A stretch of 40,010 bases of DNA from Thermoplasmatota archaeon (GCA_049472195.1 JBLIRG010000026.1:1-40010), one strand, 5' to 3'. Shown: positions 6,070 through 36,858, counted from the stretch's first letter. Numbers and translations are program-made. The notes: generated from the letters alone by a model not told the origin.

Positions 6070-6229
6070 CCCTTGTACAAGTGATCCGACGGGATTGATA
6101 TATCATATTTGCGTCGTCAAATCCATTTTCCGAAAGCCCGACAATACCCGATTTACGGCCTTTACCAGGGGATTAATGCTGTTATCCTGATTGACGGGGG
6201 GCGGAGGATGGGGTGGTGGATCGAATCGG

Positions 6230-17221: not shown

Positions 17222-17306
17222 TTAAAGATCATAGTACCAAATATAAACATATTCATATGATTTTCACCCAATCGTTTTTTTACAACTTCCACTTACACCT
17301 CTCGAG

Positions 17307-18431
17307 GTGTTATCCTTGTACGATCCCAGAATGATGAAATTGGCAGAGGTTCTGATCAAGCACTCCACCCGCCTTGAAAAGGGTGAGGTCATCTACATCG
17401 AGACGTTCGATATACCCCAGGAGATGGTGGAGATACTGGTCGACATGGTATACGAGGTGGGGGGTATCCCCATCGTATCACAGAAGACCAACAAGGTCCT
17501 TCGAAAGATCTTCATGGGCTGTGACGAGGAGGCCATGAAGGTGATCGGCGGGATCGAGATGGAGAAGATCAAGAAGGCCGATGCGTACATCGGCCTCAGA
17601 GGGTCCCACAACATAACAGAGACATCCGACGTACCCTCCGAGAAGATGGAGCATTACAAGAAGCACTGGTTCGGTCCGGTGCATATCCAGTACAGGGTTC
17701 CCAATACAAAATGGGTGGTCCTCAGATGGCCCCACCCTTCCATGGCCCAGCAGGCCGAGATGTCAACAGAGGCCTTCGAGGAGTTCTACTTCAGGACCTG
17801 CACGCTCGATTACACGAAGATGTCAAAGGCCATGGATCCCCTGGTAAAGCTCATGGAGAGGACGGACAAGGTGAGGCTCGTCGCTCCTGGGACGGATCTG
17901 ACCTTCTCGATCAAGGACATCCCGGTGATAAAGTGCGACGGGGAGTTGAACATACCCGACGGAGAGGTGTTCACCGCTCCCGTGAAGGATTCGATCAACG
18001 GCGTGATCACCTACAACACGAAGACACTTTACGAGGGGAAGGTCTTCACCGATATCAAGCTGGTATTCAAGGACGGAAAGATAGTCGAGGCCGCCTCGTC
18101 CAACACCGAGGCCATGAACAAGATCTTCGACACCGACGAGGGGGCAAGGTATGTCGGTGAGTTCGCCATCGGCGTTAACCCGTACGTGACAAAACCAATG
18201 CTCGACACGCTCTTCGATGAGAAGATCGCCGGATCGATACATTTCACCCCCGGAAACTCCTACGACATGGCCCCAAACGGAAACAGCTCGAAGATCCACT
18301 GGGACATAGTCCTGATCCAGACCCCGGAGTGGGGCGGCGGCGAGATATACTTCGACGACGTCCTTATCAGAAAGGACGGTCTGTTCGTTCTGGACGAACT
18401 CAAACCGCTCAATCCCGACAACCTCATCTGA
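17307..18431 (+). CDS. Aminopeptidase, peptidase family M29 (AmpS/PepS-like)
   Basis: 374 aa. N-terminus MLSLYDPRMMKLAEVLIKHSTRLEKGEVIYIETF resembles thermophilic aminopeptidase T/PepS proteins; size is consistent. Confidence 0.75.
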   Translation: MLSLYDPRMMKLAEVLIKHSTRLEKGEVIYIETFDIPQEMVEILVDMVYEVGGIPIVSQKTNKVLRKIFMGCDEEAMKVIGGIEMEKIKKADAYIGLRGSHNITETSDVPSEKMEHYKKHWFGPVHIQYRVPNTKWVVLRWPHPSMAQQAEMSTEAFEEFYFRTCTLDYTKMSKAMDPLVKLMERTDKVRLVAPGTDLTFSIKDIPVIKCDGELNIPDGEVFTAPVKDSINGVITYNTKTLYEGKVFTDIKLVFKDGKIVEAASSNTEAMNKIFDTDEGARYVGEFAIGVNPYVTKPMLDTLFDEKIAGSIHFTPGNSYDMAPNGNSSKIHWDIVLIQTPEWGGGEIYFDDVLIRKDGLFVLDELKPLNPDNLI

Positions 18432-20967: not shown

Positions 20968-22074
20968 TCATATCCTTACCAGATCGTAATCGGATGACCC
21001 CATACCGAGCTCCTCGGCGTAGGTGATCTGAAGATAACCGTTGGTCTTCTCCCTCATTCCCTTGAATTTATCCTTTCCAGGTTCATGGTTCTTCTTCAGC
21101 TTCGTATCGAGAAATCCCTGGCTTGAATTGACGAGATCGTAGGAAGCCCTGTCAATGGCCACCGGATCCCTGGATGCCAGGATCCCTATGTCGGGAACTA
21201 TCGGATGATCGCTCCATGAGAAGCAGTCGCAGTCGGGGGATATCTTCAACAGGAAATTGATGTAACCGCATCTGTCCCTCTTCCCGTCCACAGCTCCGTA
21301 TGCGTATTCCACCATTCTTTCCATAAACGGGTCGATCTCGGATTCCCAGTCCAATCCTATGGCATCTGCTGGACATACGGTCATGCACTCGCCGCATCCG
21401 ATGCATTTCTCCCTTACTATGAAGGATTTCCCGCCCTCGATGTGCGGTGCGTCCACCGGGCAAATATCCAGGCACTCTCCGCAGCCAATGCATCTGGCGG
21501 CCGCGACCTTGGGTCTTGCCGAGTGCTGGTCCATCTTGCCGTAGGCGGTTGCGCATCCCATTGCAAGGTTCTTGATCGCACCCCCGAAACCGGCCATCTC
21601 GTGGCCTTTGAAATGGCTCATCACGATCATCGAATCGGCCCGGTGAATATCTCCGGCGATCCTCAGGCTTCCGAAGTGCTTTCCGGCCATCTTGACATTG
21701 ACCAGGTTCTTTCCCGTAAGCCCGTCTGCGATTATGATCGGGGCCCCCACTACAGCGTAGTCGAATCCGTGAAGCACTGCCGTCTCGATGTGATCCACCG
21801 AATTGTGCCGGCTTCCCTTGTACAAGGTATTCGTATCGGTAAGGAAAGGTCTTCCTCCGGATTCCTTTATGCGATCAACGACCGGTCTGACGAATATGGG
21901 ATTGATGAACGCATCCCCGCCCATCTCCCCGAAGTGGATCTTGACGGCAGTGAGATCATCTTTCTTGATCAGGTCACTAAAACCAGCCCTGTCGAACAAT
22001 TTACCGATCTTGCTCGCCTTGTTGCTCCCAGTATTCCTTGCCTTCAGATCAGCGAAGTAAACCTCTGATGCCAT
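20968..22074 (-). CDS. DUF362-domain protein with two [4Fe-4S] ferredoxin-type cluster motifs
   Basis: 368 aa. Two CxxCxxCxxxCP motifs (CIGCGECLDICPV, CIGCGECMTVCPA) embedded in a DUF362-like scaffold. Confidence 0.55.
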   Translation of the reverse strand: MASEVYFADLKARNTGSNKASKIGKLFDRAGFSDLIKKDDLTAVKIHFGEMGGDAFINPIFVRPVVDRIKESGGRPFLTDTNTLYKGSRHNSVDHIETAVLHGFDYAVVGAPIIIADGLTGKNLVNVKMAGKHFGSLRIAGDIHRADSMIVMSHFKGHEMAGFGGAIKNLAMGCATAYGKMDQHSARPKVAAARCIGCGECLDICPVDAPHIEGGKSFIVREKCIGCGECMTVCPADAIGLDWESEIDPFMERMVEYAYGAVDGKRDRCGYINFLLKISPDCDCFSWSDHPIVPDIGILASRDPVAIDRASYDLVNSSQGFLDTKLKKNHEPGKDKFKGMREKTNGYLQITYAEELGMGSSDYDLVRI

Positions 22075-22690
22075 ACAGATGCCCCCGTATATCTTGTATC
22101 ATCTCGGAAACCGTGAGTTATCCTTATGGCGAAAACATTATTTTATTCTTTCAAAATAAATGGTTGAATGGCGACTGAACTGCGATAGACGCATTTTTTC
22201 AAAAGGTTTGGCGGGGAATTAACCCCGCCGTTTTCCTCTCTTCCCTTTACTCACCCGTGGGGTGGGTCCCATAACCTCCGTTGTTCAGAGGATCGTCATA
22301 TACAATGAGGTCCGTCCTTCGGGACCGATAATGATCCGCATCATTGATCCGGATCTTCACATGGCGAATGTTCTGATATCAATTCCCTTGAAAACACTTC
22401 TTCGGCACCTCCTGGATCATTCATCAACATCCGCACATTTTCTCTCCTTTATCACCCGTTGTTTTCATTCTTCATCGTATCCTCGTTTTCCCCGTTCCAC
22501 AATTAATATTATGTTTAAATGATTATATGACTATTTTTAATGACATTAATGAACTTTTATTCTAAAATTCAATTATAAATACGGATCTTGGATCCCTTGC
22601 ATGTTTTCAAACTACAGGATCGGGGATCATAATATGATCGGGATTCCCGCGGAAATATCAGAAAAGTATATATATGGATTATGGAAAACT

Positions 22691-22889
22691 ATCGGATTTT
22701 TCAATTTAGTTATATACTCTTGATATTGATATAAAACATAGAGGCGAGGGGGCTCCCCGGAGTGCAATGGTACGGGCCTTCCGGAAAGCCCTTGAAATCC
22801 CTCTAGATAGTATAGTACACATATGGTATTAGAAGATGTCGAAAAAAAACGAGGGATTCCGCCTGAAAAACGCAAAGGAGGTGAAAATA
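22691..22889 (+). promoter_or_regulatory. Conserved roughly 200-nt upstream element, copy A: GGATTTTTCAAT box, TATA box, GTGCAATGGTACGGGCC and CTTGAAATCCC blocks, AGGAGGTGA Shine-Dalgarno
   Basis: Block-wise homologous, with conserved spacing (box to GTGCAAT 71-72 nt; GTGCAAT to ATG 124-128 nt), to copy B at 25935-26133. Confidence 0.6.
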
Positions 22890-23027
22890 ATGGAAAGGAG
22901 AACCGACAATGCATCTGACCGCGATGGAGGCATATTCTACGATTGGTTCCCAACGGAGGAGATAATTGCGCCCTCGTATCTGGTCCTCAGACTCATCAAC
23001 CTGTACTCGTTCAGGTATCCGAGATGA
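22890..23027 (+). CDS. Small ORF A (45 aa), hypothetical peptide MERRTDNASDRDGGIFYDWFPTEEIIAPSYLVLRLINLYSFRYPR
   Basis: Strong Shine-Dalgarno AGGAGGTGA 7 nt upstream. The start region (ATGGAAAGGAG vs ATGGAAGAGGA) and the C-terminal ...LYSFRYPR motif are homologous to small ORF B (…MYNCRYPRC). Confidence 0.45.
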   Translation: MERRTDNASDRDGGIFYDWFPTEEIIAPSYLVLRLINLYSFRYPR

Positions 23028-23145
23028 ACTGCAGGGAGATCTTGACAATCAAGGACAGGCGAGAACATCGGAATAAACCGAAAAAGGGGAGAATGACAGA
23101 AAAACTTATATAGGCCTGCAATAAAACTATAGGATTTCTGATAAA

Positions 23146-23179
23146 CCATATATATACTCCCCAATGATACTTCATCTGA
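23146..23179 (+). promoter_or_regulatory. Third copy of the island promoter motif (ATAGGATTTCTGATAAACCATATATATACTCC)
   Basis: Shares ATMGGATTT box plus a TATATA box about 14 nt downstream with copy A (22691-22724) and copy B (25935-25967). Confidence 0.45.
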
Positions 23180-23227
23180 GGGTGGGGGAACGGAGCGGGG
23201 ATTGAATGCGTAAAAAGCCCGAAATAA

Positions 23228-23285
23228 AACGGAAAGAAACGGGTTCCGCCCATTTCTTTCCGTTACCATTTTCAACTTATTTTCC
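23228..23285 (+). terminator. Hairpin (16-bp imperfect inverted repeat AACGGAAAGAAACGGG / CCCATTTCTTTCCGTT) followed by T-rich tract
   Basis: Stem 23228-23243 and 23249-23264, loop TTCCG, then ACCATTTTCAACTTATTTTCC. Lies about 50 nt downstream of the third promoter copy. Confidence 0.45.
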
Positions 23286-23389
23286 ATATTTGAGAATATT
23301 CTAATGAATTATCATTATTCGCGAAATATTCCGATCCCGAATGGAAAAATTATATCTATACTACTACCCATTCTAAGATCGAGGGCTGT

Positions 23390-24754
23390 ATGAAGATAGA
23401 TAGAGAATCCCAGGTAATGTACGGAGTTCACCTCCTACTCGGTGTCGATGACTACTCAAGGGGACATGACAAGCAGGAGCTTTCGAACGCACTCGGAATA
23501 TCAAGCAACACGCTCGATCTCTATCTTGCCCATCTTTCAAAGCGGGATCTGATCAACAGGAAGAAATCAAGATACCAGAAGGAGATCAGACAGATCATAA
23601 AATTGACCGAGGAGGGGGCAAAGGAGGTTCAGAAGATCGAATCGGACATCAACAAACTCCTCCTTACCAACGAGCGGCACAATATTCCCAACTGCATAAA
23701 CGTAACAGATATTCTGAGCAGGATCCCCGATCCCCTCGCGAAGATATTCTTCCTTGCGGTCTACAACAAATACAAGAGCTTCGATCTGCCGATGTTCCTG
23801 GAGACGCTGAGGATCTCCAAGCAGGATGTGAACATAATCAACCTCTTTCCGGGATCAGAGGGAAGCTATTCCGATACAGGAAGAATCCCCCTTATCGAAT
23901 CGATATTCAAAACATGTTTCTACGGGGATATCGACTGTGAAATATTGGACACCGATGTCTGGGGCGAGAAGGATATCGATGCATTTCTCGTCGTCGCCGA
24001 GGCCAGGCTCAAACAGGGAAAGCTCAAAGACGCGGAGATGATTTATGATTATATTCTGTCACCTAAACTCGAGATCACTCAGAACCAATGGTTTATAGCA
24101 CGCCTGGGAATGGTAAACATACTGCGAAGACAGGGCAAATTCGATGAAGCTTTGGAGCAGCTCGATGAGATTCACGACATGGTCGATGACAGCGTATACC
24201 AGGCCTTCATAAAGGAGAACAAAGCCTTGATCTACACCATAACCTACCAAAATCAGAAATCCATGGATATGTTCAAAAGGTCAATAGCATCATTCACCAC
24301 TCATGGCCTACCACTTATGCTTTCTATCGCATACAATAACCGCGGGACCTGTTACTTCAGGATGGAAGATTACCAGAATGCGGAGAAGGACTGGATCAAA
24401 GCGAGAAAATTCGCCAAGAAAGCACAGTCCGCTTACTGCGAGGCTGCCATCCTGTGCAATCTATCGGATACGACTGCCATGAAGGGAAAGATAGATCTTG
24501 CTGTCAAATATCTCAATAAGGCCTTCAAGATATTCAAGGAGATTCCTGATTACGAGGGAATGGCAAGTGTTTACTACAACTTCTCACTCCTTTATCTTGA
24601 GAGCGGGCAGCTTGAAAACGCATTGGAAAATTTCCGAAATTCGATTACGGTTGCAGAACCTCTTCCTTCTGATTTTGAAAAGAAAGACTGGAGAAAAACC
24701 TTCATCCAGAGGGGGAAGGACCACGGTTTCGACTCTATAGAAAATATAATATAA
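23390..24754 (+). CDS. wHTH-TPR protein (N-terminal winged helix DNA-binding domain plus C-terminal tetratricopeptide repeats)
   Basis: 454 aa. N-terminus ELSNALGISSNTLDLYLAHLSKRDLINRKKS is HTH-like. C-terminal half has multiple 34-residue TPR-like units (for example AYNNRGTCYFRMEDYQNAEKDWIKARKFAKK, LCNLSDTTAMKGKIDLAVKYLNKAFKIFKE, YYNFSLLYLESGQLENALENFRNSI). TATA-like box about 35 nt upstream. Confidence 0.6.
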   Translation: MKIDRESQVMYGVHLLLGVDDYSRGHDKQELSNALGISSNTLDLYLAHLSKRDLINRKKSRYQKEIRQIIKLTEEGAKEVQKIESDINKLLLTNERHNIPNCINVTDILSRIPDPLAKIFFLAVYNKYKSFDLPMFLETLRISKQDVNIINLFPGSEGSYSDTGRIPLIESIFKTCFYGDIDCEILDTDVWGEKDIDAFLVVAEARLKQGKLKDAEMIYDYILSPKLEITQNQWFIARLGMVNILRRQGKFDEALEQLDEIHDMVDDSVYQAFIKENKALIYTITYQNQKSMDMFKRSIASFTTHGLPLMLSIAYNNRGTCYFRMEDYQNAEKDWIKARKFAKKAQSAYCEAAILCNLSDTTAMKGKIDLAVKYLNKAFKIFKEIPDYEGMASVYYNFSLLYLESGQLENALENFRNSITVAEPLPSDFEKKDWRKTFIQRGKDHGFDSIENII

Positions 24755-24823
24755 TGATCATTATTATTCACAAATGGATTGAAATATTCAATCAATTTGA
24801 ATAAATATGTGGGGTGATGTGAT

Positions 24824-25420
24824 TTGGTAAAAAAAGCGTTAATCATCATTTCCGATGATTACCACGGAATGACCAATGGTTTCGAATTGGAAAAAGCGGA
24901 AAGGCTCAGAGATGATTTGAGAAGCAAGGGATGGATCGTTAATAGTGACGATAATTCAAATGATCAGATCGTGGTCAATAGAAATGATTTTTTAGCTCTC
25001 AGGGATTGGTTGAGGGACCACCCAAACCAGCCGGATGATGAATTTCTCGTGTATATCGCCGACCAGACCCATCTGATTGCCGGAGACGATATCAAGATAT
25101 CATTTTCGACTGGAGAGGCGAATATTGTCGATGAGATCGACTATGAATTCAAAGATCATCTTTGTGTTGAGTTCACACTCGTATTTGGGGGTCCAAAATC
25201 GGGAGGTGCCATCCATGATCAGACACATCTCGGACCAAAATGTCTTGTGATATGCTCGATGCATGAATCAGAGGATTATAATGATGATCTGTTTGATCTT
25301 CAGTACAGCCTCATGGGAGATAATTTCCTGGAGGCTGGAAGACAGGAAAGGGCCAGGCTGCTTCTTGAGAATCCTGTACAACACGTACAATTGAAGAATA
25401 GGAACAATCCGGTACCGTGA
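24824..25420 (+). CDS. Hypothetical protein (198 aa), possibly a caspase-like (peptidase C14-type) fold. Start uncertain (TTG at 24824; first ATG is Met16)
   Basis: N-terminal strand KKALIIISDDY, then helix ELEKAERLRDDLRSKGWIVN, then DEFLVYIADQTH (His position) and KCLVICSMHE (Cys position). These follow the strand/His/Cys order of caspase-like domains. Internal repeat DQTHL appears twice. Confidence 0.35.
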   Translation: MVKKALIIISDDYHGMTNGFELEKAERLRDDLRSKGWIVNSDDNSNDQIVVNRNDFLALRDWLRDHPNQPDDEFLVYIADQTHLIAGDDIKISFSTGEANIVDEIDYEFKDHLCVEFTLVFGGPKSGGAIHDQTHLGPKCLVICSMHESEDYNDDLFDLQYSLMGDNFLEAGRQERARLLLENPVQHVQLKNRNNPVP

Positions 25421-25434
25421 ACGAACATCGGCAG

Positions 25435-25740
25435 TTAATGATTTTTAATCCAGCTGCCGATGATTATTCCTTTTTCTTTTCTCAATTTATCCTTTTTTTC
25501 CTTAATATATTCGTATTCTTCTTCGTTTTTGATTTTATGGATCATCGCGTCGAGGTCCATCCTCTCTATTTTGCATACCTCGCTGTACATCGCACGAATT
25601 GCCCTGACTCTCCTCCTCCCCGCACATTTCGGCAAAGGCCTTTCCGGTCTTTCACCATCGATGTAACCGTTGTATATCTCCCTGATTATATCCTTGTTCG
25701 TTTTACCCATTTCAATTCCCTCCTGATCAAACAATATCAT
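25435..25740 (-). CDS. Hypothetical small basic protein (101 aa)
   Basis: ORF MILFDQEGIEMGKTNKDIIREIYNGYIDGERPERPLPKCAGRRRVRAIRAMYSEVCKIERMD...KEKKDKLRKEKG. TATA-like ATTTATAT about 25 nt upstream on the minus strand, so possibly leaderless. The plus-strand overlapping ORF is poly-Phe junk. Confidence 0.4.
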   Translation of the reverse strand: MILFDQEGIEMGKTNKDIIREIYNGYIDGERPERPLPKCAGRRRVRAIRAMYSEVCKIERMDLDAMIHKIKNEEEYEYIKEKKDKLRKEKGIIIGSWIKNH

Positions 25741-25934
25741 ATGAAAAAGGAAATATAAATAGATAAAGGATTGTGTTCTTCAGGAAATATAATCTTCATT
25801 TAGTTCAAATAATGTTAAAATATTCTCATATTTATACATTCATGGCAGGTCGAATATTCAATTAGGATAGGATAAATAATGCATGATATGGGAAAAAGCG
25901 GAGAGTAAACCTTATATATGCCTTTCCGGAAAAT

Positions 25935-26133
25935 ATAGGATTTTTCAATCCCCTTATATATCCTGATAGCCGATATTCAATTGCAGCGAGGAGGAATGCC
26001 GACCGGTGCAATATGGTACGGGCCCGGGCGGCGATCCTTTGAAATCCCGAAAGATCCGAACCGGATCGTCATGATCCCGGGGGGGATCGGTGGGGATTTC
26101 TTCCGCTAGAAAATACCGAAAGGGGGTGTAGTG
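25935..26133 (+). promoter_or_regulatory. Conserved roughly 200-nt upstream element, copy B (ATAGGATTTTTCAAT box, TTATATAT, GTGCAATATGGTACGGGCC, CTTTGAAATCCC, GGGGGTG Shine-Dalgarno)
   Basis: Homologous to copy A with conserved block order and spacing. Confidence 0.6.
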
Positions 26134-28649: not shown

Positions 28650-30635
28650 ATGGAACTTGCATTGTTGATACTGCTGTTCCTCGGATCGATACTATCATTG
28701 GTCACGGTCGGAGGAGCAGGATCGTTGTGGCTGTTCGGCTTCAGGTTGATTCCTAACAACAAATGTGCCGTGGTGGAGATGAGATGGTCCGGCAAGGGAT
28801 CACTCAAGGACAGGATAATCGCCCTCGGAGGCGAGGCCGGTTTCCAGCCGGAGGTCCTCAGGGGCGGAATACATTTCAGGAGCCCCCTGAAGTACAAAAT
28901 TCACAGGATCCCCCTGGTGACCGTGCCTCAGGGACAGATGGGATACGTATTCGCAAGGGACGGACTGTCCCTCGAGCCCAAACAGACCCTCGGGAGGATC
29001 GTTAACGAGGGAAGCAACTTCCAGTCTGTCACGGGCTTTCTCAAGCATGGCGGACAGCGGGGACCCCAGAGGGGCATCCTGAGGGAGGGAACCTATGCGA
29101 TCAACCTGGCCCAGTTCGTGATCATCCTCGAGGACGATCTGTACTACATGCCGATCGACCGCGAGGATGCGAGGACGTTCACCAAGATGTCGAACCTTAT
29201 CAGGATCAGGAACGGATTCAGACCTGTGGTGATCACGGGAAAGGACGACACCATGGGAATCGTTACGGTTCATGATGGTCCATCGCTAAGCCCCGGAGAG
29301 ATAATCGCCCCCCAGGTCGGAGATGACGAGCCGAAGAGCAGGTACAATCACAACAACTACCAGGAGCCCGAGAAGTTCCTGGAATCCGGCGGAAGGAGGG
29401 GAAAACAGTACCAGGTCCTTGTGGACGGCACCTATTTCATCAACAGGCTCTTCGCGACCGTTGAGATCATACCAAAAACGGTGGTGAACGTGGGGTATGT
29501 TGGAGTCGTTGTATCATATTACGGGAAGAGAGGGCACGATGCCTCAGGCGAGGATTACAAGCACGGGGAGCTCGTTTCCGTCGGGAGCAAGGGCGTATGG
29601 AAGGATCCGCTCATGCCCGGCAAATATCCCTTCAACGTCTACGCCGGAAGGGTGATCGCCGTTCCCACCACGAACATAGTCCTCAAATGGAAGAGGAACG
29701 AGATCGGAAATCACAAGCTGGACGAGAACCTCAGCGCCGTGGACCTGATCTCGAAGGATGCCTTCGAACCCGAACTCCCGCTTTCCGTGGTCATCCATAT
29801 CGACTACAGGAAGGCGCCTCTGGTCATACAGAGGTTCGGCGACATTAAGAAACTGGTGGATCAGACCCTGGATCCCATGGTAGCTGCCTATTTCAAGAAC
29901 ATCGGACAGACAAAGACCCTTATCCAGCTCATTCAAGAAAGATCGGAGATACAGCAGATGGCTTCCACCGACATGAAGGAGAAGTTCGCCCACTACGACC
30001 TGGAGCTCGAGGAAGTTCTCATCGGGACCCCCACATCATCCCAGTCCGACGGCAGGATAGAGAGCATTCTCGTCCAGCTCAGGGATCGTCAGATAGCGAC
30101 CGAACAGATCCGAACATACGAGAAGCAGGAAATGGCCGCCGTGAAGGAGAGGGAGCTCAACGAGGCGAGGGCAAAGGCCCTTCAGCAGGAATCCCTTACC
30201 AGATCGGAGATCAACATCGATATTCAGAGAAATGAGGGGACCGCGGAGTACGAGAGATCCCTCCAGGAGGCTTCGAAGATCAAGGCTATCGCTCATGCGA
30301 ATGCGGAGAAGGAGGCCAGAATGGGCATTGCTCGGGCAATCGCCACCGAGGAGCAGGTTAGAGCATACGGCGGGCCGAGATACCAGGTCATCCAGCAGAC
30401 GATGGAGAAGTTCGCAAAGGCCGTGGAGAGGTCCAAGGTCGACATCGTTCCGAGAATGATGATCAACAACAGGGAGGGAGAGGGCGGGGGAACCGCTTTC
30501 GAAGCGCTTCTGTCGGTCCTCCTGTCCAAGGAGATCGGAATCGATCTCAGGGACGAATCGGACAGGAGCGAGGAGGCTGAGAGGATCAGAAAAATGATAC
30601 TGAAATCCCTCTCCGAGGGAGAGGCTGAAACCTGA
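28650..30635 (+). CDS. Flotillin/SPFH (band 7) family membrane protein with C-terminal coiled-coil EA-rich region
   Basis: N-terminal TM LALLILLFLGSILSLVTVGG. SPFH-like core ending ...HYDLELEEVLIGTP. Then a long heptad or Ala/Glu-rich region (KERELNEARAKALQQESLTRSEINIDIQRNEGTAEYERSLQEASKIKAIAHANAEKEARMGIARAIATEEQ). Internal duplicate LREGTYAINLAQFVIIL / LVDGTYFINRLFATVEI. GGGAGGTAAGGAG Shine-Dalgarno. Confidence 0.6.
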   Translation: MELALLILLFLGSILSLVTVGGAGSLWLFGFRLIPNNKCAVVEMRWSGKGSLKDRIIALGGEAGFQPEVLRGGIHFRSPLKYKIHRIPLVTVPQGQMGYVFARDGLSLEPKQTLGRIVNEGSNFQSVTGFLKHGGQRGPQRGILREGTYAINLAQFVIILEDDLYYMPIDREDARTFTKMSNLIRIRNGFRPVVITGKDDTMGIVTVHDGPSLSPGEIIAPQVGDDEPKSRYNHNNYQEPEKFLESGGRRGKQYQVLVDGTYFINRLFATVEIIPKTVVNVGYVGVVVSYYGKRGHDASGEDYKHGELVSVGSKGVWKDPLMPGKYPFNVYAGRVIAVPTTNIVLKWKRNEIGNHKLDENLSAVDLISKDAFEPELPLSVVIHIDYRKAPLVIQRFGDIKKLVDQTLDPMVAAYFKNIGQTKTLIQLIQERSEIQQMASTDMKEKFAHYDLELEEVLIGTPTSSQSDGRIESILVQLRDRQIATEQIRTYEKQEMAAVKERELNEARAKALQQESLTRSEINIDIQRNEGTAEYERSLQEASKIKAIAHANAEKEARMGIARAIATEEQVRAYGGPRYQVIQQTMEKFAKAVERSKVDIVPRMMINNREGEGGGTAFEALLSVLLSKEIGIDLRDESDRSEEAERIRKMILKSLSEGEAET

Positions 30636-30925
30636 TCCTCTCCCTCATTTTCATTTTTTTCCAGCGATCGGCCGATATGAGATCGGAAGTGGGGGGTTTG
30701 CCATTCTCTTTATATACGGTGTAACGGATAAAATGCGATATATTGTAAATATTATGAAAATTACTGAAAAAAAATATCATATAATCCATTAATAACCCTT
30801 ATATACATATTTTCCATTAGGCCGTTCCGGGTGGCTTGAAATGAGCCTCGGAAATCGGGAGAAGCATAAAGGGAGATCGAAAACCCGCCCGTATTCCTAC
30901 CCCCCTCATTGTGGAGCCTGCCCCG

Positions 30926-31054
30926 ATGATGAAAATCAATGCGGTGCACCGTATGCTCGATCTCTTCATCTGCCCCGAACGCGGATGTCACTGGCACGGA
31001 CCGGATGAAGAAGACGCGAGGAATATCCAACCTGAGGACAGCGAGGACTGGTAA
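30926..31054 (+). CDS. Small ORF (42 aa) homologous to the C-terminal part of the 8-Cys zinc-ribbon domain (fragment or mini-protein), immediately upstream of NfnA-like gene
   Basis: MMKINAVHRMLDLFICPERGCHWHGPDEEDARNIQPEDSEDW aligns with KIHIEAMHHKLDFFFCSKRGCRWHGLDYENITDIVLEDSNEW (C-terminus of 33958..34380) and with ...LIPFFICLRYGCGWHGL of the NfnB N-terminal domain. TAA stop at 31052-31054, 1 nt before the GTG of the next gene. Confidence 0.45.
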   Translation: MMKINAVHRMLDLFICPERGCHWHGPDEEDARNIQPEDSEDW

Positions 31055-31055
31055 C

Positions 31056-31892
31056 GTGTACGAGATCATAAGGAAAGAGGAGATGGCGAACGGGTCCGTC
31101 ATCCGCTTCGATATAAGGGCTCCCAATATAGCTGACAAGATCAAACCGGGGCAGTTCGTGATAATCAGAACCCATGAGGGAGGGGAAAGGATACCTCTGA
31201 CCGTGGCCGATAAGGACAGCGAGAGGGGGACCATTGCCATAATATTTCAGGTGGTCGGAAAGACCACCGCTCTGATGAGATCACTTGACAGGGGGGATGG
31301 CCTCAGGGATGTGGCGGGACCTCTCGGACTGCCGTCCGACCTCAAGAACGTGGGGACCGCGGTTGTGGTCGGCGGTGGAACGGGGGTGGCAATCCTGCAC
31401 CATATCACGAAGGGCCTCCGAGAGTCCGGGAACAGGATAGTGGGGATCATAGGAGCCAAGAGCAGCGATTTCCTGATCCTGAAGGATGAGATGGAGGATC
31501 TCTGCGACGAGCTCATCATTACTACCGATGACGGAAGCGTGGGGATTCACGGATTCGTCACTCAGCCGCTGGAAGAACTGCTTAAAAGCGGCGAAGAGAT
31601 CAATGAGGTGTTTGCAATTGGGCCCATCGTGATGATGAAGAACGTCGCATCGCTTACGAAGCCCTACGGGATCAAAACGGTGGTCAGCCTGAACCCGGTC
31701 ATGATCGACGGTACCGGGATGTGCGGGTGCTGCAGGGTAATAATAGACGGAAAGATGAAATTCTGCTGCGTTGACGGGCCGGAATTCGACGGCCATACGG
31801 TGGATTTCGAGAAGCTGATGCTCAGAAATTCCATGTTTCAGAACGAGGAGAGGGAATCCATTCTTTCATCCATTTCACTGAGGGGGCACTGA
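31056..31892 (+). CDS. NfnA/SudB-like subunit (FAD/NAD(P)-binding ferredoxin-NADP reductase-like with [2Fe-2S]); PyrK-like fold
   Basis: GTG start 31056 (VYEIIRKEEMANGSVIRFDIRAP..., PyrK/NfnA-like N-terminus). C-terminal GTGMCGCCRV...KFCCVDGPEFDGH cluster motif. The longer ORF from 30939 overlaps the upstream small ORF in another frame. Confidence 0.75.
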   Translation: MYEIIRKEEMANGSVIRFDIRAPNIADKIKPGQFVIIRTHEGGERIPLTVADKDSERGTIAIIFQVVGKTTALMRSLDRGDGLRDVAGPLGLPSDLKNVGTAVVVGGGTGVAILHHITKGLRESGNRIVGIIGAKSSDFLILKDEMEDLCDELIITTDDGSVGIHGFVTQPLEELLKSGEEINEVFAIGPIVMMKNVASLTKPYGIKTVVSLNPVMIDGTGMCGCCRVIIDGKMKFCCVDGPEFDGHTVDFEKLMLRNSMFQNEERESILSSISLRGH

Positions 31893-33676
31893 TGTCCGAA
31901 ACAGATGTTCACTACATGATGTTCAGGTCGCACCTGAGCACCTATTGCCCGCACTGCCGCCAGACCTTCAACGTCAAGATCAAGGGGGAGGAACACCTGC
32001 ACTTCAAGGGTGTTTTCAAGGGAAAGGAGGTCGATATCAAGCTCAGCCCGTACCTGGATGTGTTCGAGAAGGAGACATCCGTTCCCATGGACGAACAGGA
32101 CGTCTTATCCGACATGTTCTGTCCCAAATGCAAGAACAGCCTCCTCATCGGGAACAAGAAATGCGAGGAATGCGGATCGCCGGCGGGGGAGCTGATATTG
32201 TCCGCATTCTCGAAACTGATCCCTTTCTTCATCTGTTTGAGGTATGGATGCGGATGGCACGGGCTGACAAAGGCGGACGAGCACAGCATAAAGCTCAAGA
32301 TCCCAAGACAGGATATGCCGGAGCAGGACCACAAGCTGAGGGTCCACAACTTCAAGGAGGTTCCGCTGGGATACACCTCCAAGAAGGCCATGCTCGAGGC
32401 CGGAAGGTGCCTCCAGTGCATCAATCCCCAGTGTGTGCAGGGATGCCCGGTGAATGTCGATATTCCGGCATTCATACAGAAGATCCGGGAGGATAACTTT
32501 CTCGGGGCTGCCAAGAAGATCAAGGAGAAGAACATACTCCCTGCTGTCTGCGGAAGGGTATGCCCGCAGGAGGAGCAGTGCGAGTTGAAATGCGTCCTCG
32601 GCATACGGGATAAACCGGTTGCGATAGGAAACCTGGAGAGATTTGTAGCCGACTACGAGAGGGAGATGGGGACCAAGGATTTCCCCAAGATCAAGGATAC
32701 AAGGGAAAAAAAGGTGGCAGTGGTTGGTTCGGGACCGGGGGGCCTAACATGCGCCGCCGATCTCGTGTGGCTGGGATATGATGTCACTGTCTTCGAGGCT
32801 TTTCACGAGGCCGGCGGAGTTCTGAAATACGGCATCCCCGAGTTCAGGCTTCCGAAGGTCATCGTACAGAACGAGATCGAGTTCCTCAAGGAGATGGGGT
32901 GCAGGATCGAGCTCAACAGCGTCATTGGAAACATATACACCGTGGATGAGCTGCTCGAGAAGTTCGACGCGGTATACATCGGTGTGGGAGCTGGGCTCCC
33001 GAGGTTCATGGGACTCGAGGGGGAGGACTTCAACAATATCGTTTCGGCCAACGAGTACCTTACCAGGATCAATCTCATGAAGGCATACAAGTTCCCGGAG
33101 GTCGACACCCCTCTTCCCAGGGGAGAGAAGGTCATCGTTCTCGGAGCGGGAAACGTTGCGATGGATTCGGCCAGATCTGCTCTTCGGTCCGGAGCGAAGT
33201 CGGTAACGATAATCTACCGGAGATCACGGGACGAGATGCCGGCCAGGAACGAGGAGATCAGGCATGCGGAGGAGGAAGGTGTCAAGTTCCTGTTCCTGAC
33301 AAATCCGGTGAGGTTCCTAGGCGACAAGAAAGCCTGCGTGAAGGGTATTGAATGTCAGAGAATGAGACTGACGGAGCCTGACGAAAGCGGGCGGCGGAAA
33401 CCCATCCCCGTCGAGGGGGACAATTTCATCGTGGATGCCGATCTTGTGGTCGTATCGATCGGCGCCAATGCCAATCCCCTGGTTTTCAGGACGTCTCCCG
33501 ATATTAAGAGGAACAACTGGGGCTACATCGAGGTTGATCCCGAGACCATGGAGACATCGAAACCCTTCGTATTCGCGGGTGGAGATATTGTGACCGGATC
33601 GGCCACGGTCATACAGGCCATGGGGGCCGGAAGGAAGGCCGCAAGATCCATCCATGAGAAGCTTTCACCGGAATGA
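31892..33676 (+). CDS. NfnB/GltD-like subunit (two [4Fe-4S], FAD, NAD(P)H-binding) with an extra roughly 135-aa N-terminal 8-Cys zinc-ribbon domain
   Basis: Residues about 139-594 match NfnB/SudA/GltD (MPEQDHKLRVHNFKEVPLGYT, CLQC..PQCVQGCPVNVDIP, CGRVCPQEEQCELKC, VAVVGSGPGGLTCA, VIVLGAGNVAMD). The N-terminal 135 aa (YCPHC...CPKCK...CEEC...FFICLRYGCGWHG) is an additional domain homologous to ORF 33958..34380. 1-nt overlap with the upstream stop. Confidence 0.8.
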   Translation: MSETDVHYMMFRSHLSTYCPHCRQTFNVKIKGEEHLHFKGVFKGKEVDIKLSPYLDVFEKETSVPMDEQDVLSDMFCPKCKNSLLIGNKKCEECGSPAGELILSAFSKLIPFFICLRYGCGWHGLTKADEHSIKLKIPRQDMPEQDHKLRVHNFKEVPLGYTSKKAMLEAGRCLQCINPQCVQGCPVNVDIPAFIQKIREDNFLGAAKKIKEKNILPAVCGRVCPQEEQCELKCVLGIRDKPVAIGNLERFVADYEREMGTKDFPKIKDTREKKVAVVGSGPGGLTCAADLVWLGYDVTVFEAFHEAGGVLKYGIPEFRLPKVIVQNEIEFLKEMGCRIELNSVIGNIYTVDELLEKFDAVYIGVGAGLPRFMGLEGEDFNNIVSANEYLTRINLMKAYKFPEVDTPLPRGEKVIVLGAGNVAMDSARSALRSGAKSVTIIYRRSRDEMPARNEEIRHAEEEGVKFLFLTNPVRFLGDKKACVKGIECQRMRLTEPDESGRRKPIPVEGDNFIVDADLVVVSIGANANPLVFRTSPDIKRNNWGYIEVDPETMETSKPFVFAGGDIVTGSATVIQAMGAGRKAARSIHEKLSPE

Positions 33677-33957
33677 TATCCATGGATGTCGCCCATGATT
33701 CATGCGGTTGAATCGCTATGCTTTCGGGATGCTTCTGTTTTCAATAATCAGCGTGTTATTCAATAAATTTTAGATTATTTCATAATATTGAATGGATTGA
33801 AAACGGGGCAGAAAAACACACGGGGATTTCTCCTGCTGAAAATCTGTTAGGAGCGGATATGTCCGACTTGTCAACACTTTTAATTTATGCATTATAAAGT
33901 ATATAAATGTCAGAATTATTAAATATCCAGATTCCATATTACCCAGGGGGGCGTTCT

Positions 33958-34380
33958 ATGGGAAAAGAACATTCAGACACCTATATAATAAGATCGGGCT
34001 CGTATCTGAACACATACTGTCCCCACTGCGAGGAGGGATTGAACGAGGATCTCCATGTGACGTTCAGTATCATCAATACATACGGCGAGGAGGGGACGCT
34101 CAAGCTCAGCCCCTACCTGAACGTGTTCACCAAGGAGAGCACGGTCAGGCTCCCGGAGGATGTGAACCTCCGTGACGTTCTATGCCCAAAATGTAAAAAG
34201 AGCCTCATTTTGGATGAGAGACGGTGCACGAAATGTGATTCCCGCGTCGCAAAGATACACATTGAGGCGATGCATCACAAGCTGGATTTCTTTTTCTGCT
34301 CCAAGAGGGGATGTCGATGGCACGGGCTTGATTACGAGAACATAACCGACATCGTCCTGGAGGATTCGAATGAGTGGTGA
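33958..34380 (+). CDS. Standalone 8-Cys zinc-ribbon domain protein (about 140 aa; alternative start 33907 gives 157 aa)
   Basis: MGKEHSDTYIIRSGSYLNTYCPHCEEGL...KLSPYLNVFTKESTV...LCPKCKKSLILDERRCTKCDS...FFFCSKRGCRWHG. Motif-for-motif homologous to the NfnB N-terminal extension. GGGGGG Shine-Dalgarno 8 nt before the 33958 ATG. A TATA-like AGTATATAA sits too close to the 33907 ATG. Confidence 0.6.
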   Translation: MGKEHSDTYIIRSGSYLNTYCPHCEEGLNEDLHVTFSIINTYGEEGTLKLSPYLNVFTKESTVRLPEDVNLRDVLCPKCKKSLILDERRCTKCDSRVAKIHIEAMHHKLDFFFCSKRGCRWHGLDYENITDIVLEDSNEW

Positions 34381-34507: not shown

Positions 34508-35011
34508 ATGGACGAAGGACACGAGAGCAGTGATGAGCAGACATTGAAGATCATCGAAAAACACGGATCGGACATCAAGAACCTGATCCCCATCCTTCAG
34601 GAGGTCCAGGAGATATACGGTTATCTTCCGGCCCCTGCGATCACGACCATCGCGGATGAACTTCAGATATCGGAGGATGTTATCTTCGGAGTGGCCACCT
34701 TCTACACTCATTTCAAATTCACACAGCCCGGGGAGCATGTTATCAAGGCGTGCCTGGGAACAGCCTGTTTTGTCAAAGGGGCCGATAATCTGCTCGAGAT
34801 ACTGAAGGACCGGTTCGGGATAGAACCGGGAGAGACCTCGGCGGATAACAGCGTCTCACTTGAGAGGGTGGCATGTCTGGGCTGCTGTGCGCTTGCCCCG
34901 ACCATCGTGGTCGACGATGAGGTTCACGGCAACATGAGCTCGGTGAAGCTTACCAAGATAATCGACGAGCTGATGGAGGAAAAGGGCGGGGAAGAGGAAG
35001 GGGGGAACTGA
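34508..35011 (+). CDS. NuoE/HydC-like thioredoxin-fold [2Fe-2S] ferredoxin subunit
   Basis: 167 aa. Cluster motifs ACLGTAC and CLGCCALAP at NuoE-typical spacing. GGAGTGA Shine-Dalgarno. Confidence 0.8.
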   Translation: MDEGHESSDEQTLKIIEKHGSDIKNLIPILQEVQEIYGYLPAPAITTIADELQISEDVIFGVATFYTHFKFTQPGEHVIKACLGTACFVKGADNLLEILKDRFGIEPGETSADNSVSLERVACLGCCALAPTIVVDDEVHGNMSSVKLTKIIDELMEEKGGEEEGGN

Positions 35012-35013
35012 TA

Positions 35014-36858
35014 ATGAAGCATACCCTACTGGTCTGCCAGGGAACCGGATGCATGTCATCAAGATCGCACAAGATCACCAAGGAGCTGCAATCGGTGATA
35101 GATTCCAGGGGGATGGGGGATGAAGTGGAGGTCAAACTTACGGGATGCCACGGTTTCTGCCAGCGGGGCCCCATCGTCGTCGTCGAACCCGAGGGCACCT
35201 TCTACTGCCACGTATCACCCGAGGATGCCGCGGAGATCATCGACAGTGACATAGTCGGGGGAAAACCGATCGAACGCCTGTTCTACGAGGATCCCGTATC
35301 CGGAAAGAAAATCCGGCATTACCGGGATATCGCGTTTTACAAGGAGCAGGAGAGGCTGATCCTCAGGAACTGCGGGCACATCAATCCGGAGAGCATTGAT
35401 GACTACATTTCCAAGGACGGGTACAAGGCCCTCGAAAGGGCCTTGAAGAAAATGTCCCGGCTCGATATAATCGAGGAGGTCAAGAATTCCGGTCTGAGGG
35501 GGAGGGGCGGTGCCGGTTTCTCCACCGGTATGAAGTGGAAGTTCGCATACGATGCCCCCGGTGATGAGAAATACATGATATGCAACGCTGATGAAGGGGA
35601 TCCCGGGGCCTTCATGGACAGATCCACGCTGGAGGCCGATCCCCACTCGGTCCTTGAGGGGATGATAATCGCCGGATATGCGATAGGGGCCCATCTCGGA
35701 TATATCTATGTCAGGAAGGAATATCCCCTGGCGATATTGAGGCTTCACATTGCCATCAGGCAGGCGAAGGAGCGGGGATTCCTCGGATCCGACATACTCG
35801 GATCGGGATTCGATTTCGACATCGAGATCATGGAGGGAGCGGGTGCATTCGTTTGCGGGGAGGAGACCGCCCTTATCGCCTCGATCATGGGAATGCGGGG
35901 CATGCCCCATCCGAGGCCGCCCTTTCCGGCGCAGAAGGGATTATGGGGGAAACCCACTAACATCAACAACGTCAAAACCCTAGCAACGGTCCCGGCCATA
36001 ATCCTCAACGGGGCCGAATGGTACAGCTCGATCGGAACCGAGAACACCAGGGGGACCGCCGTGTTCGCCCTCACGGGAAATATCAGGAACTCGGGACTGG
36101 TCGAGGTCCCGATGGGGACCTCTCTTCGGAAGATCATCGAGGATATCGGCGGGGGAATCCCGGACGGAAAGAAATTCAAGGCTGTTCAGACTGGAGGTCC
36201 GTCCGGAGGGTGCCTCCCGGAGGATTCGCTTGACAGGATCGTCGATTTCGAATCCCTGAAGGAAGCGGGGACAATAATGGGATCGGGCGGCATGATCGTC
36301 ATGGACGAGGGAACCTGCGTGGTGGATGTGGCACACTACTTCATCTCGTTCACCCAGGAGGAGTCCTGCGGCAAGTGCTCTCCGTGCAGGATCGGGACCA
36401 AGCAGATGCTGGACGTGCTCACCAGGATCAAGAACGGGAGGGGGACCGGGGAAGACCTCGACCAACTGGCATCCCTCGCATGGACGGTTCAGAACGGATC
36501 CCTCTGCGCCCTGGGCCAAACGGCCCCGAATCCCGTACTGACAACACTGCGATATTTCCGTGAGGAGTACGAGGAGCATATCAAAGAGGGGAAATGCAGA
36601 TCCCTCGTATGCAAGCCCCTGATCCAGTATGTCATCGACGAGGAGAAGTGCATCGGATGCGGGGCATGTCAGAGGAGATGCCCGGTGAAGGCCATTTCGG
36701 AAACGGATGCCCCCGTGACCGCAATTCCCGGCGGAAAGAACATGATCAGGTCCATCGATCCGTCGATATGCGTCCGGTGCGGCCTATGCATCGAGACCTG
36801 CCCCCCAAAGGTCAAGGCGATCTCCAAGATCTCTCCCGTCAGGGGAGGTGGTGCCTGA
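35014..36858 (+). CDS. NuoF/HydB-like flavoprotein subunit (N-terminal Trx-like [2Fe-2S], FMN/NAD(P)H-binding core with [4Fe-4S], C-terminal 2x[4Fe-4S] ferredoxin domain)
   Basis: LLVCQGTGCMSS...GCHGFCQRGP (2Fe-2S). GLRGRGGAGFSTGMKWKF (FMN/NADH). ESCGKCSPCRIG (N3 cluster). CIGCGACQRRCP and CVRCGLCIETCP. Start 3 nt after the NuoE-like stop. Confidence 0.85.
   Translation: MKHTLLVCQGTGCMSSRSHKITKELQSVIDSRGMGDEVEVKLTGCHGFCQRGPIVVVEPEGTFYCHVSPEDAAEIIDSDIVGGKPIERLFYEDPVSGKKIRHYRDIAFYKEQERLILRNCGHINPESIDDYISKDGYKALERALKKMSRLDIIEEVKNSGLRGRGGAGFSTGMKWKFAYDAPGDEKYMICNADEGDPGAFMDRSTLEADPHSVLEGMIIAGYAIGAHLGYIYVRKEYPLAILRLHIAIRQAKERGFLGSDILGSGFDFDIEIMEGAGAFVCGEETALIASIMGMRGMPHPRPPFPAQKGLWGKPTNINNVKTLATVPAIILNGAEWYSSIGTENTRGTAVFALTGNIRNSGLVEVPMGTSLRKIIEDIGGGIPDGKKFKAVQTGGPSGGCLPEDSLDRIVDFESLKEAGTIMGSGGMIVMDEGTCVVDVAHYFISFTQEESCGKCSPCRIGTKQMLDVLTRIKNGRGTGEDLDQLASLAWTVQNGSLCALGQTAPNPVLTTLRYFREEYEEHIKEGKCRSLVCKPLIQYVIDEEKCIGCGACQRRCPVKAISETDAPVTAIPGGKNMIRSIDPSICVRCGLCIETCPPKVKAISKISPVRGGGA

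Follow-up and report, generated by a model that had tools for sequence, protein, structure and literature searches.

NfnAB and Bfu enzymes have a central part in how anaerobes balance their redox state, and they count among the most thoroughly studied examples of electron bifurcation. A review of Nfn enzymes sets out four architectural patterns, A to D, none of which includes a zinc-ribbon (ZR) module, and describes the DGTGMCGxCR motif of NfnA (PMC6405883). Another paper gives criteria by which true NfnB can be told apart from NfnB-like ferredoxin:NADP reductases, and describes an N-terminal arm in the Pyrococcus furiosus enzyme that lies packed against the helices bearing the two [4Fe-4S] clusters; the arm is suggested to shield or gate the distal cluster, which is exposed, and to confer partner specificity (PMC12221290). 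The zinc ions reported for Bfu enzymes, in the structural work consulted, occupy intrinsic sites of BfuB (PMC12018979). For the Thermococcaceae, NfnSL and Nfn-Bfu have been reported as alternatives, never both. Here we describe a small domain of ~135 aa with eight cysteines, the ZR module, which occurs three times beside or within genes for such enzymes in a 40,010-bp contig of a metagenome-assembled genome (MAG) labelled 'Thermoplasmatota archaeon' (GCA_049472195.1 JBLIRG010000026.1; this whole stretch is called the window below). The analysis takes up an earlier reading of the DNA, referred to as the original prediction, which had noted the three copies and proposed a dedicated accessory role for them, with Zn-dependent assembly or interaction, a rubredoxin-like electron entry point and regulation as possible mechanisms.

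An eight-cysteine module occurs three times in the window

The standalone protein encoded upstream of the NuoE/F/G-like genes (copy 3) aligns with the first ~135 aa of the NfnB-like open reading frame (ORF; copy 2) at 37% identity over 134 aa (E = 2e-31), and with a short ORF preceding nfnA (copy 1; 30911/30926-31054) at 49% identity over 41 aa (E = 2e-14). The DNA itself carries three repeat families, D1-D3, that are in register, with D3 matching all three copies at 30954, 32217 and 34280. The presence of three homologous copies at the positions first reported is thus confirmed at both the protein and the DNA level. The ORF bearing copy 2 spans 31892-33676 (594 aa) and starts where nfnA ends (31892), while that of copy 3 spans 33907-34380 and ends in LEDSNEW; the true start of copy 3 is very probably the ATG at 33958, giving a protein of 140 aa. 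Two related contigs (L086 and L087), which were reached via a protein more than 90% identical to the window NfnB and whose DNA is ~80-82% identical to the window, allowed substitution rates to be compared. Relative to L086, the ratio of non-synonymous to synonymous substitution (dN/dS) was 0.07 for copy 2 and 0.09 for copy 3, and both copies are under purifying selection.

Cysteine conservation was read from an alignment of 44 diverse N-type and C-type modules, as defined below, from distant organisms (A7), which was chosen over another (A6) in which one- and two-module proteins were mixed out of register. This revealed that C21, C24, C76, C79, C90, C93, C114, G118 and C119 are invariant and that H122 is kept in at least 90% of the modules, with the knuckles following in the order CPxC, CPxC, CxxC and Cx4C before a final (W/N)H. 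The motif order proposed from the window copies is therefore correct and general, all eight cysteines being invariant across these modules. Conservation extends to the C-terminus: in 82 of 84 free ZR proteins the sequence closes with I-x-L-[ED]-[DE]-S-x-E-W-COOH, so that tryptophan is the last residue. In the NfnB fusions, the tail position instead runs on into NfnB as a linker, IKLKIPRQ[DE]MPEQ, and copy 2 of the window is followed by the conserved linker IKLKIPRQDMPEQD.

The module is a recurrent companion of Nfn genes

A profile of the family was searched against 1.84 billion representative proteins clustered at 50% identity, returning 363 representatives at E <= 1e-3, of which 218 also pass E <= 1e-10. 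These fall into two-module proteins of 270-295 aa, composed of an 'N-type' and a 'C-type' module with eight cysteines each, single C-type proteins of 130-160 aa as in the window, and many single N-type proteins of ~135 aa. Fusions to redox subunits were also recovered, namely ZR+NfnB (P0173), NuoE+ZR (P0158), REC+NuoE+ZR (P0163) and ZR+NuoF-like (P0145), along with a few fusions to unrelated domains, including an adenylate cyclase/AAA_16 pair and a Mur-ligase-like domain.

A scan of a single genome for each GTDB species confirmed a C-type relative in at least 227 species genomes; the locus counts that follow refer to the best 80 of 227 species-representative loci, whose ORFs were compared with the window proteins. 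The taxa, all of them MAGs, include Bacteroidales, Cloacimonadota, Ignavibacteria, WOR-3, TA06, Thermoplasmatota, Bathyarchaeia and Asgard archaea. Either nfnA or nfnB is present at 78 of these 80 loci, and in 70 the ZR gene lies directly 5' of nfnA, often with a gap of 4-10 nt. The exact unit of ZR protein, NfnA and ZR-NfnB fusion, its linker conserved, was found in 64 loci, and a NuoF-like gene in 29. Where a canonical locus had at least 5 kb of downstream flank, it went on to NuoE, NuoF and NuoG-like genes in 20 of 41 cases, and the NuoG-like protein of these loci usually bears a GltD/NfnB-like insert, which is the Bfu architecture of NfnABC/Stn. An NfnSL-type pair with its ZR gene and an NfnABC/Stn-type Bfu share a single apparent operon in L001, L008, L025, L035, L048, L052, L054, L060 and other bacterial loci, where the BfuA with the GltD insert measures ~1150-1230 aa.

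Two further gene orders were observed. In one, the ZR gene lies 3' of an NfnA-NfnB pair and divergent from a NuoE-NuoF-NuoG-NfnA-NfnB series; in three such loci (L002-L004) the NfnB preceding the ZR gene, of 525 aa, has a Lys/Glu-rich N-terminal extension of ~60 aa and no ZR module. In the other, an archaeal arrangement, ZR genes occupy two positions, 5' of nfnA and 5' of nuoE, as single C-type genes in the window and in L086/L087 and as two-module genes in L006 (Bathyarchaeia); L007 (Asgard) has a ZR gene only at the position before nuoE.

Unbiased clustering of all ORFs in the 80 loci yielded no further universal partner. Sensor kinase (25 of 80), glutamate dehydrogenase (19 of 80) and rubrerythrin-like (6 of 80) genes recur as neighbours; they were considered as conserved partners and rejected, as they look like lineage synteny. 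The glutamate-dehydrogenase-like gene, exemplified by L070 (4143-5501, minus strand) and identified by its N-terminal sequence only, may reflect such synteny or a tie to amino-acid fermentation. For the N-type proteins, genome contexts were taken from the protein search and six sampled loci. Three of the six combine hyp maturation genes with a gene for a NuoE/F fusion (hypA and hypE/D/C/F in L090 and L091, hypE/D/C/F in L088), a fourth (L093) has genes for an Hdr/Mvh-type NiFe hydrogenase, and the remaining two are unrelated; it is possible that the single N-type modules form a hydrogenase-associated branch of the family.

Taken together, these data identify the ZR module as a dedicated companion of NfnSL-type enzymes, one that is under selection, is often bound to them covalently and has recurrently been joined to NuoE- and NuoF-type proteins. 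The proposal of a dedicated accessory role, drawn originally from repeated placement in one genome, is strongly supported: the linkage holds in other genomes, for nfnA/nfnB, the NfnB fusion and the NuoF-like gene alike, and an absence of linkage elsewhere, which would have spoken against the role, is clearly contradicted.

The module matches no described family

For the window copies, no Pfam or NCBIfam model reached its cutoff (NCBIfam, 0 families). The curated zinc ribbons of Pfam stayed below gathering cutoff, with DZR at 14-16.6 bits (cutoff 27.3) and DZR_2 at 19.2 bits (cutoff 27), and the sub-threshold Pfam matches were confined to generic zinc ribbons (DZR, Zn_ribbon_6, TFIIS-like) and HypA; a distant member of the family, P0024, just attains DZR with 28.0 bits. 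The rubredoxin family was absent from the Pfam listing at E <= 0.1, and just one of the four knuckles of the module has the glycine after the second cysteine that is part of the rubredoxin CxxCG signature. A search of the family profile against PDB sequences found nothing. Two AlphaFold2 models for the standalone protein were all-beta, with pLDDT values of 74.6 and 77.8 and pTM values of 0.69 and 0.73, and the last five residues fell below a pLDDT of 50 in both; Foldseek returned no match with E < 1.

The original prediction did not recognise the domain as a known partner of Nfn or Bfu enzymes, and none of these searches, by Pfam, NCBIfam, PDB sequence or fold, gave a match above cutoff. A term search of the literature, in the portions indexed by those terms, found no paper in which 'zinc ribbon' occurs together with NfnA or NfnB, and in the Bfu classification and cryo-electron microscopy papers, to the extent that the term search covers them, intrinsic zinc sites are described and no zinc-ribbon subunit (PMC9304861, PMC12018979); such a partner was thus not turned up in the Nfn and Bfu literature. 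The module is a previously undescribed cysteine-knuckle domain of ~135 aa, predicted to be all-beta, and the ZR family is a clean target for a new domain definition.

The partner enzymes are of Nfn and Bfu type

The core of the window NfnB, from residue 139 of the query onward, aligns with residues 5-460 of Thermotoga maritima NfnB (4YLF_B; E = 2e-165) and with P. furiosus NfnI-L from residue 8 of that protein (5JCA_L; E = 5e-155). As the alignment begins only at residue 139, the ZR module is a pure N-terminal addition to an otherwise complete subunit. Pfam places Fer4_20 (E = 3.5e-44) and Pyr_redox_2 (E = 1.5e-32) in the core, and the NCBIfam model TIGR01316 scores 588 bits (cutoff 472). By the published criteria, a true NfnB has an N-terminal arm that is extended and Arg333 (and Arg201) close to the bifurcating FAD, and its gene directly follows nfnA (PMC12221290). 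The window protein shows all of these: both arginines of the P. furiosus enzyme are conserved, as are the segments PEFRLP and EMPAR, the extended arm is kept, and nfnA lies upstream. Judged by its sequence, the core is a bona fide NfnL. Its partner NfnA, which combines an FNR-like FAD/NAD domain with a C-terminal [2Fe-2S] domain, scores 392 bits against NF004862 (cutoff 220) and has the DHODB_Fe-S_bind domain with a DGTGMCGCCR motif.

The NuoF-like protein downstream combines an N-terminal [2Fe-2S] domain, an FMN/NADH domain and C-terminal ferredoxin domains for two [4Fe-4S] clusters, which is the domain set of BfuB, and its best PDB matches are B subunits of Bfu-type enzymes, namely hydrogenase HydB or NiFe subunit B and NfnB (7T2R_B, 4e-245, then 7Q4V_B, 9N5U_B, 9BOV_B and 8OH5_B). 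The NuoG-like protein has Fer2_4, Fer4_Nqo3, Molybdop_Fe4S4 and Molybdopterin domains and matches formate dehydrogenase alpha (Fdh alpha), Csac NfnA and subunit A of NiFe-Bfu in the PDB, with 9BOV_A and 7T2R_A among the best matches. The NuoE/F/G-like genes thus have the BfuC/BfuB/BfuA architecture and are predicted to encode a Bfu core.

Copy 1 is a decayed gene

In L086 and L087, an intact ZR gene of 130-140 aa lies between the SPFH gene and nfnA and stops one base before the nfnA GTG. The nfnA GTG of the window, a start fixed by the L086 orthologue, lies one base after the TAA of copy 1. A three-way DNA alignment of the window, L086 and L087 revealed that 209 nt are missing between 30931 and 30932, and this internal deletion has left the two remnants of copy 1 in different frames: a 5' remnant at 30841-30931 (MSLGNREKHKGRSKTRPYSYPPHCGACPDDE..) and a 3' remnant at 30932-31054 (KINAVHRMLDLFICPERGCHWHG..EDSEDW and stop), the last 40 codons of the gene. 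YCPHC has become YPPHC in the 5' remnant, replacing an otherwise invariant first cysteine, and of the eight cysteines only two survive in the 3' frame that is still open. The 42-aa ORF owes its initial ATGATG to an out-of-frame remnant of AATGACGAC. Compared with L086, dN is 0.17-0.27 in the remnants and 0.03-0.13 in neighbouring genes; dN/dS is a weak test of pseudogene status here and says little about the remnants, because dS is saturated at 1.0-2.2. The copy 1 ORF has no annotation in the NCBI record.

Copy 1 is therefore an inactivated gene, and the part of the original prediction that described it as a translated 42-aa C-terminal fragment abutting nfnA does not hold, the fragment being what is left at the 3' end of a full-length gene after a frameshifting deletion. 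A functional micro-protein or translationally coupled leader was also considered and rejected, given that its start codons derive from an out-of-frame remnant and that an invariant cysteine has been lost upstream. Some residual coupling of the remnant to nfnA is possible. It is also possible that the 209-nt deletion is an assembly error, although the loss of the cysteine speaks for genuine decay. The role of the lost first free copy has presumably passed to its paralogue 5' of nuoE (33958-34380).

Organisation of the locus and of the window

The features of the locus are collected in Table 1. The AT-rich spacer between nfnB and copy 3 contains a TATA-like element, cattataaagtatataaa, at ~33890-33907, and a G-rich stretch precedes the ATG at 33958; from these sequence features, the spacer is probably the promoter of a second transcription unit. 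The second NfnA-like gene begins at the NuoG-like stop codon. As the order NuoG-NfnA-NfnB is found in L002, L006 and L007, a second NfnB should, by analogy, lie beyond the contig end, in which case the locus would comprise two NfnSL pairs and a Bfu core.

Table 1. Features of the Nfn-Bfu locus and its 5' neighbour in the window
Feature	Coordinates	Strand	Basis
SPFH-domain gene	28650-30635	+	ORF 5' of copy 1
Pseudogene of single-module ZR protein (copy 1)	30841..31054	+	Comparison with L086 and L087
NfnA / NfnS-like small subunit, 278 aa, GTG start	31056..31892	+	NCBIfam NF004862, Pfam DHODB_Fe-S_bind
ZR module (copy 2), aa 1-135 of NfnB, all 8 Cys and WHG	31892..32296	+	E = 2e-31 against copy 3
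NfnB / NfnL core, Fer4_20 with two [4Fe-4S] clusters and FAD/NADPH domain	32297..33676	+	Alignments with 4YLF_B and 5JCA_L
AT-rich intergenic region, 281 nt	33677..33957	+	Read directly from the sequence
Standalone single-module ZR protein (copy 3), 140 aa, ACMUIG_04680	33958..34380	+	NCBI 'hypothetical protein'
NuoE / BfuC-like thioredoxin-like [2Fe-2S] subunit	34508..35011	+	Pfam 2Fe-2S_thioredx, E = 1.6e-46
NuoF / BfuB-like subunit	35014..36858	+	Pfam architecture, PDB matches
NuoG / BfuA-like subunit, molybdopterin-oxidoreductase-like domain, 781 aa	36858..39203	+	Pfam, PDB matches
Second NfnA/NfnS-like gene, runs off the contig end	39203..40010	+	Translation MVREYKIIEKYEE...DGTGMCGCCRV

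A mechanically called NuoG-like ORF reaches 88 codons further 5' (36594-36857, plus strand), overlapping nuoF; the annotated and conserved start is the ATG at 36858. Elsewhere in the window, two low-GC islands (16001-18000 and 22001-26000) have a GC content of 0.41-0.44 versus ~0.55 in the rest, the former carrying a GH26-like gene and an M29 peptidase and the latter a TPR protein together with ORFs that lack a Pfam match. On the minus strand, at 3760-10738, lie two very large ORFs of 769 and 1502 aa, whose sole Pfam match is to Big_7 Ig-like repeats; they probably encode surface proteins. A search for tRNA and Rfam families across the window found none.

Proposed role of the module

On the evidence of sequence and gene context, the ZR module is most likely a permanent component of a distinct subfamily of NfnAB-type bifurcating NADPH:ferredoxin/NAD oxidoreductases, and its eight cysteines most probably bind two zinc ions as Zn(Cys)4 sites. 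How it would act within the enzyme can be proposed tentatively, with a confidence that falls somewhat short of even. The ancestral operon would have encoded a ZR protein, NfnA and the ZR-NfnB fusion, to which a Bfu-type NuoE/F/G-like enzyme was often appended. Because the fused module is attached to the arm that packs on the [4Fe-4S] helices, it would sit at the low-potential, ferredoxin-facing end of NfnB, where it may serve as a zinc-stabilised device for protein-protein docking or gating. The fused module and the free ZR protein could together form a platform that controls what docks at, or shields, the distal cluster, be it ferredoxin or the co-encoded Bfu complex, and the anchoring peptide would be the flexible ...EDSxEW tail with which the free protein ends.

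Several observations weigh against this docking or gating proposal. Nearby Bfu genes are lacking in approximately half of the canonical loci whose flank is long enough, so that docking of Bfu cannot be its universal role. The window genome tolerates the loss of one free copy, which points to redundancy or to the dispensability of that copy. The N-type relatives stand beside hyp genes in three of six contexts and beside NiFe-hydrogenase or NuoEF-type genes in four of six, which fits a role in assembly too, and the four cysteine knuckles are, as far as their sequence goes, equally compatible with Fe(Cys)4 centres.

A rubredoxin-like function is one that we consider unlikely. Two Fe(Cys)4 sites per module would then lengthen the route of electrons beyond the distal [4Fe-4S] cluster of NfnB, and the fused and free modules would provide a built-in point of electron entry or exit that replaces or supplements ferredoxin, or that wires NfnAB to Bfu or to a diiron protein. 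Rubrerythrin, flavorubredoxin and desulfoferrodoxin offer precedents for the fusion of Fe(Cys)4 domains with redox enzymes, and the eight invariant cysteines in CPxC, CxxC and Cx4C knuckles, together with the joining of the module to the arm beside the NfnB clusters, would suit such a path, as would the rubrerythrin-like genes that flank the cluster in L001, L005 and about six of 80 loci. That neighbour is rare, however, and rubredoxins have potentials much too positive to serve in the low-potential branch of an Nfn. Moreover, no Pfam rubredoxin match was found at E <= 0.1, the weak matches being all to zinc ribbons (DZR, Zn_ribbon_6, HypA and TFIIS-like), and three of the four knuckles in alignment A7 lack a glycine after the second cysteine. 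A related idea, which we regard as rather improbable, is that the ZR modules couple the flavin-only bifurcating module of NfnSL type and the FMN/iron-sulfur bifurcating module of Bfu type at their low-potential ends in a hitherto unknown super-complex, in which electrons would cross between the two bifurcation sites without free ferredoxin, through docking or through Fe(Cys)4 centres of the modules, with the invariant ...EDSxEW-COOH tail as the plug.

The module may alternatively be a regulatory cap or switch that reversibly covers the distal cluster or the nucleotide site in response to a signal, such as thiol oxidation with release of zinc, a metabolite or a phosphorylated partner, turning the enzyme off under oxidative or unbalanced redox conditions. 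The suggestion that the NfnB arm protects or gates the distal cluster (PMC12221290) is in keeping with this, as are the fusions to signalling domains (REC+NuoE+ZR in P0163 and DZR+adenylate cyclase+AAA_16+ZR in P0107), the C-terminal extension without domain assignment in P0090, and the terminal tryptophan, which, in its acidic, disordered tail, could plug a flavin or nucleotide site. Such signalling fusions are, however, a small minority of the 363 representatives, neither a sensor-type ligand pocket nor a known redox-switch family was detected in the Pfam, NCBIfam and fold searches, and constitutive fusion with tight, possibly coupled gene spacing suggests a structural subunit; we regard a switch as rather unlikely. 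Quite improbable, too, is a factor for the assembly or maturation of NuoEF- and Nfn-type iron-sulfur flavoproteins, metallochaperone-like in the manner of the HypA zinc domain and with no catalytic part. Its appeal lies in the weak, sub-threshold Pfam matches to HypA and in the N-type proteins, which accompany hyp genes and genes for NuoEF-fusion hydrogenases in three of six contexts and an Hdr/Mvh-type NiFe hydrogenase in a fourth, although two of the six contexts are unrelated, and one would not expect a transient helper to be fused with its client in 64 of 80 species, or its gene to stand first and tightly spaced in the operon. A zinc ribbon that binds nucleic acid and autoregulates transcription or translation of the operon appears highly improbable: zinc ribbons often do bind nucleic acids, and some automatic names read 'RNA-binding Zn-ribbon' or 'topoisomerase Zn-finger', but the tails of the free ZR proteins are acidic, and a protein that is fused to NuoE, to NuoF and to the N-terminal end of a catalytic subunit is unlike a regulator.

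Comparison with known systems

What is new here is the ZR domain family; the kind of enzyme that it varies, Nfn, is already known. The module would add to Nfn a third conserved component, fused to NfnB in many lineages, encoded first in the operon and found in at least 227 species of abundant but uncultured anaerobes, both bacterial and archaeal, so that models of Nfn with two subunits would leave a part of this large subfamily's enzyme unaccounted for. Under the annotations 'glutamate synthase' and 'hypothetical protein', a defined enzyme of three parts goes unseen. That NfnSL and Nfn-Bfu are frequently encoded side by side stands in contrast to the either/or pattern reported for Thermococcaceae, and suggests that both systems can cooperate.

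As a domain, the module is ~3 times longer than DZR (PF12773), DZR_2, Zn_ribbon_6 and the TFIIS/Rpb9-type ribbons of Pfam, and differs from generic double zinc ribbons in having a second, outer cysteine pair (CxxC...Cx4C-x2-H), a conserved beta core (LSPYLNVF / LSSxYGSY) and a specific tail. The C-terminal domain of RIG-I-like receptors likewise holds one zinc between CxxC and Cx4C pairs that are distant in sequence; its biology is unrelated to that of the ZR module, and the resemblance is a lead only. Rubrerythrin and flavorubredoxin carry small cysteine-knuckle domains on flavin or iron-sulfur enzymes as electron entry points. The ZR module has no sequence match to rubredoxin-type domains, and its knuckle sequences and their spacing differ.

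At the level of the enzyme, the window resembles characterised NfnAB/NfnSL (4YLF, 5JCA) in its full-length NfnA and NfnB core, in the Asp/Cys [2Fe-2S] motif and in the order nfnA-nfnB. Whereas characterised NfnAB/NfnSL are two-subunit enzymes or a single fusion, the window NfnB has an extra N-terminal module of 135 aa with eight cysteines, and operons of this subfamily, unlike the characterised ones, open with a free protein of one or two ZR modules. The downstream genes have the architecture of Bfu enzymes (NfnABC/Stn, HydABC and NiFe-HydABCSL), and many of the bacterial BfuA proteins have a GltD/NfnB-like insert as in NfnABC/Stn. Unlike in known Bfu systems, the Bfu genes here stand in the same locus as an NfnSL pair, often in what appears to be one operon, and in the archaeal form a second NfnA/NfnB pair stands 3' of the Bfu genes in place of the GltD insert.

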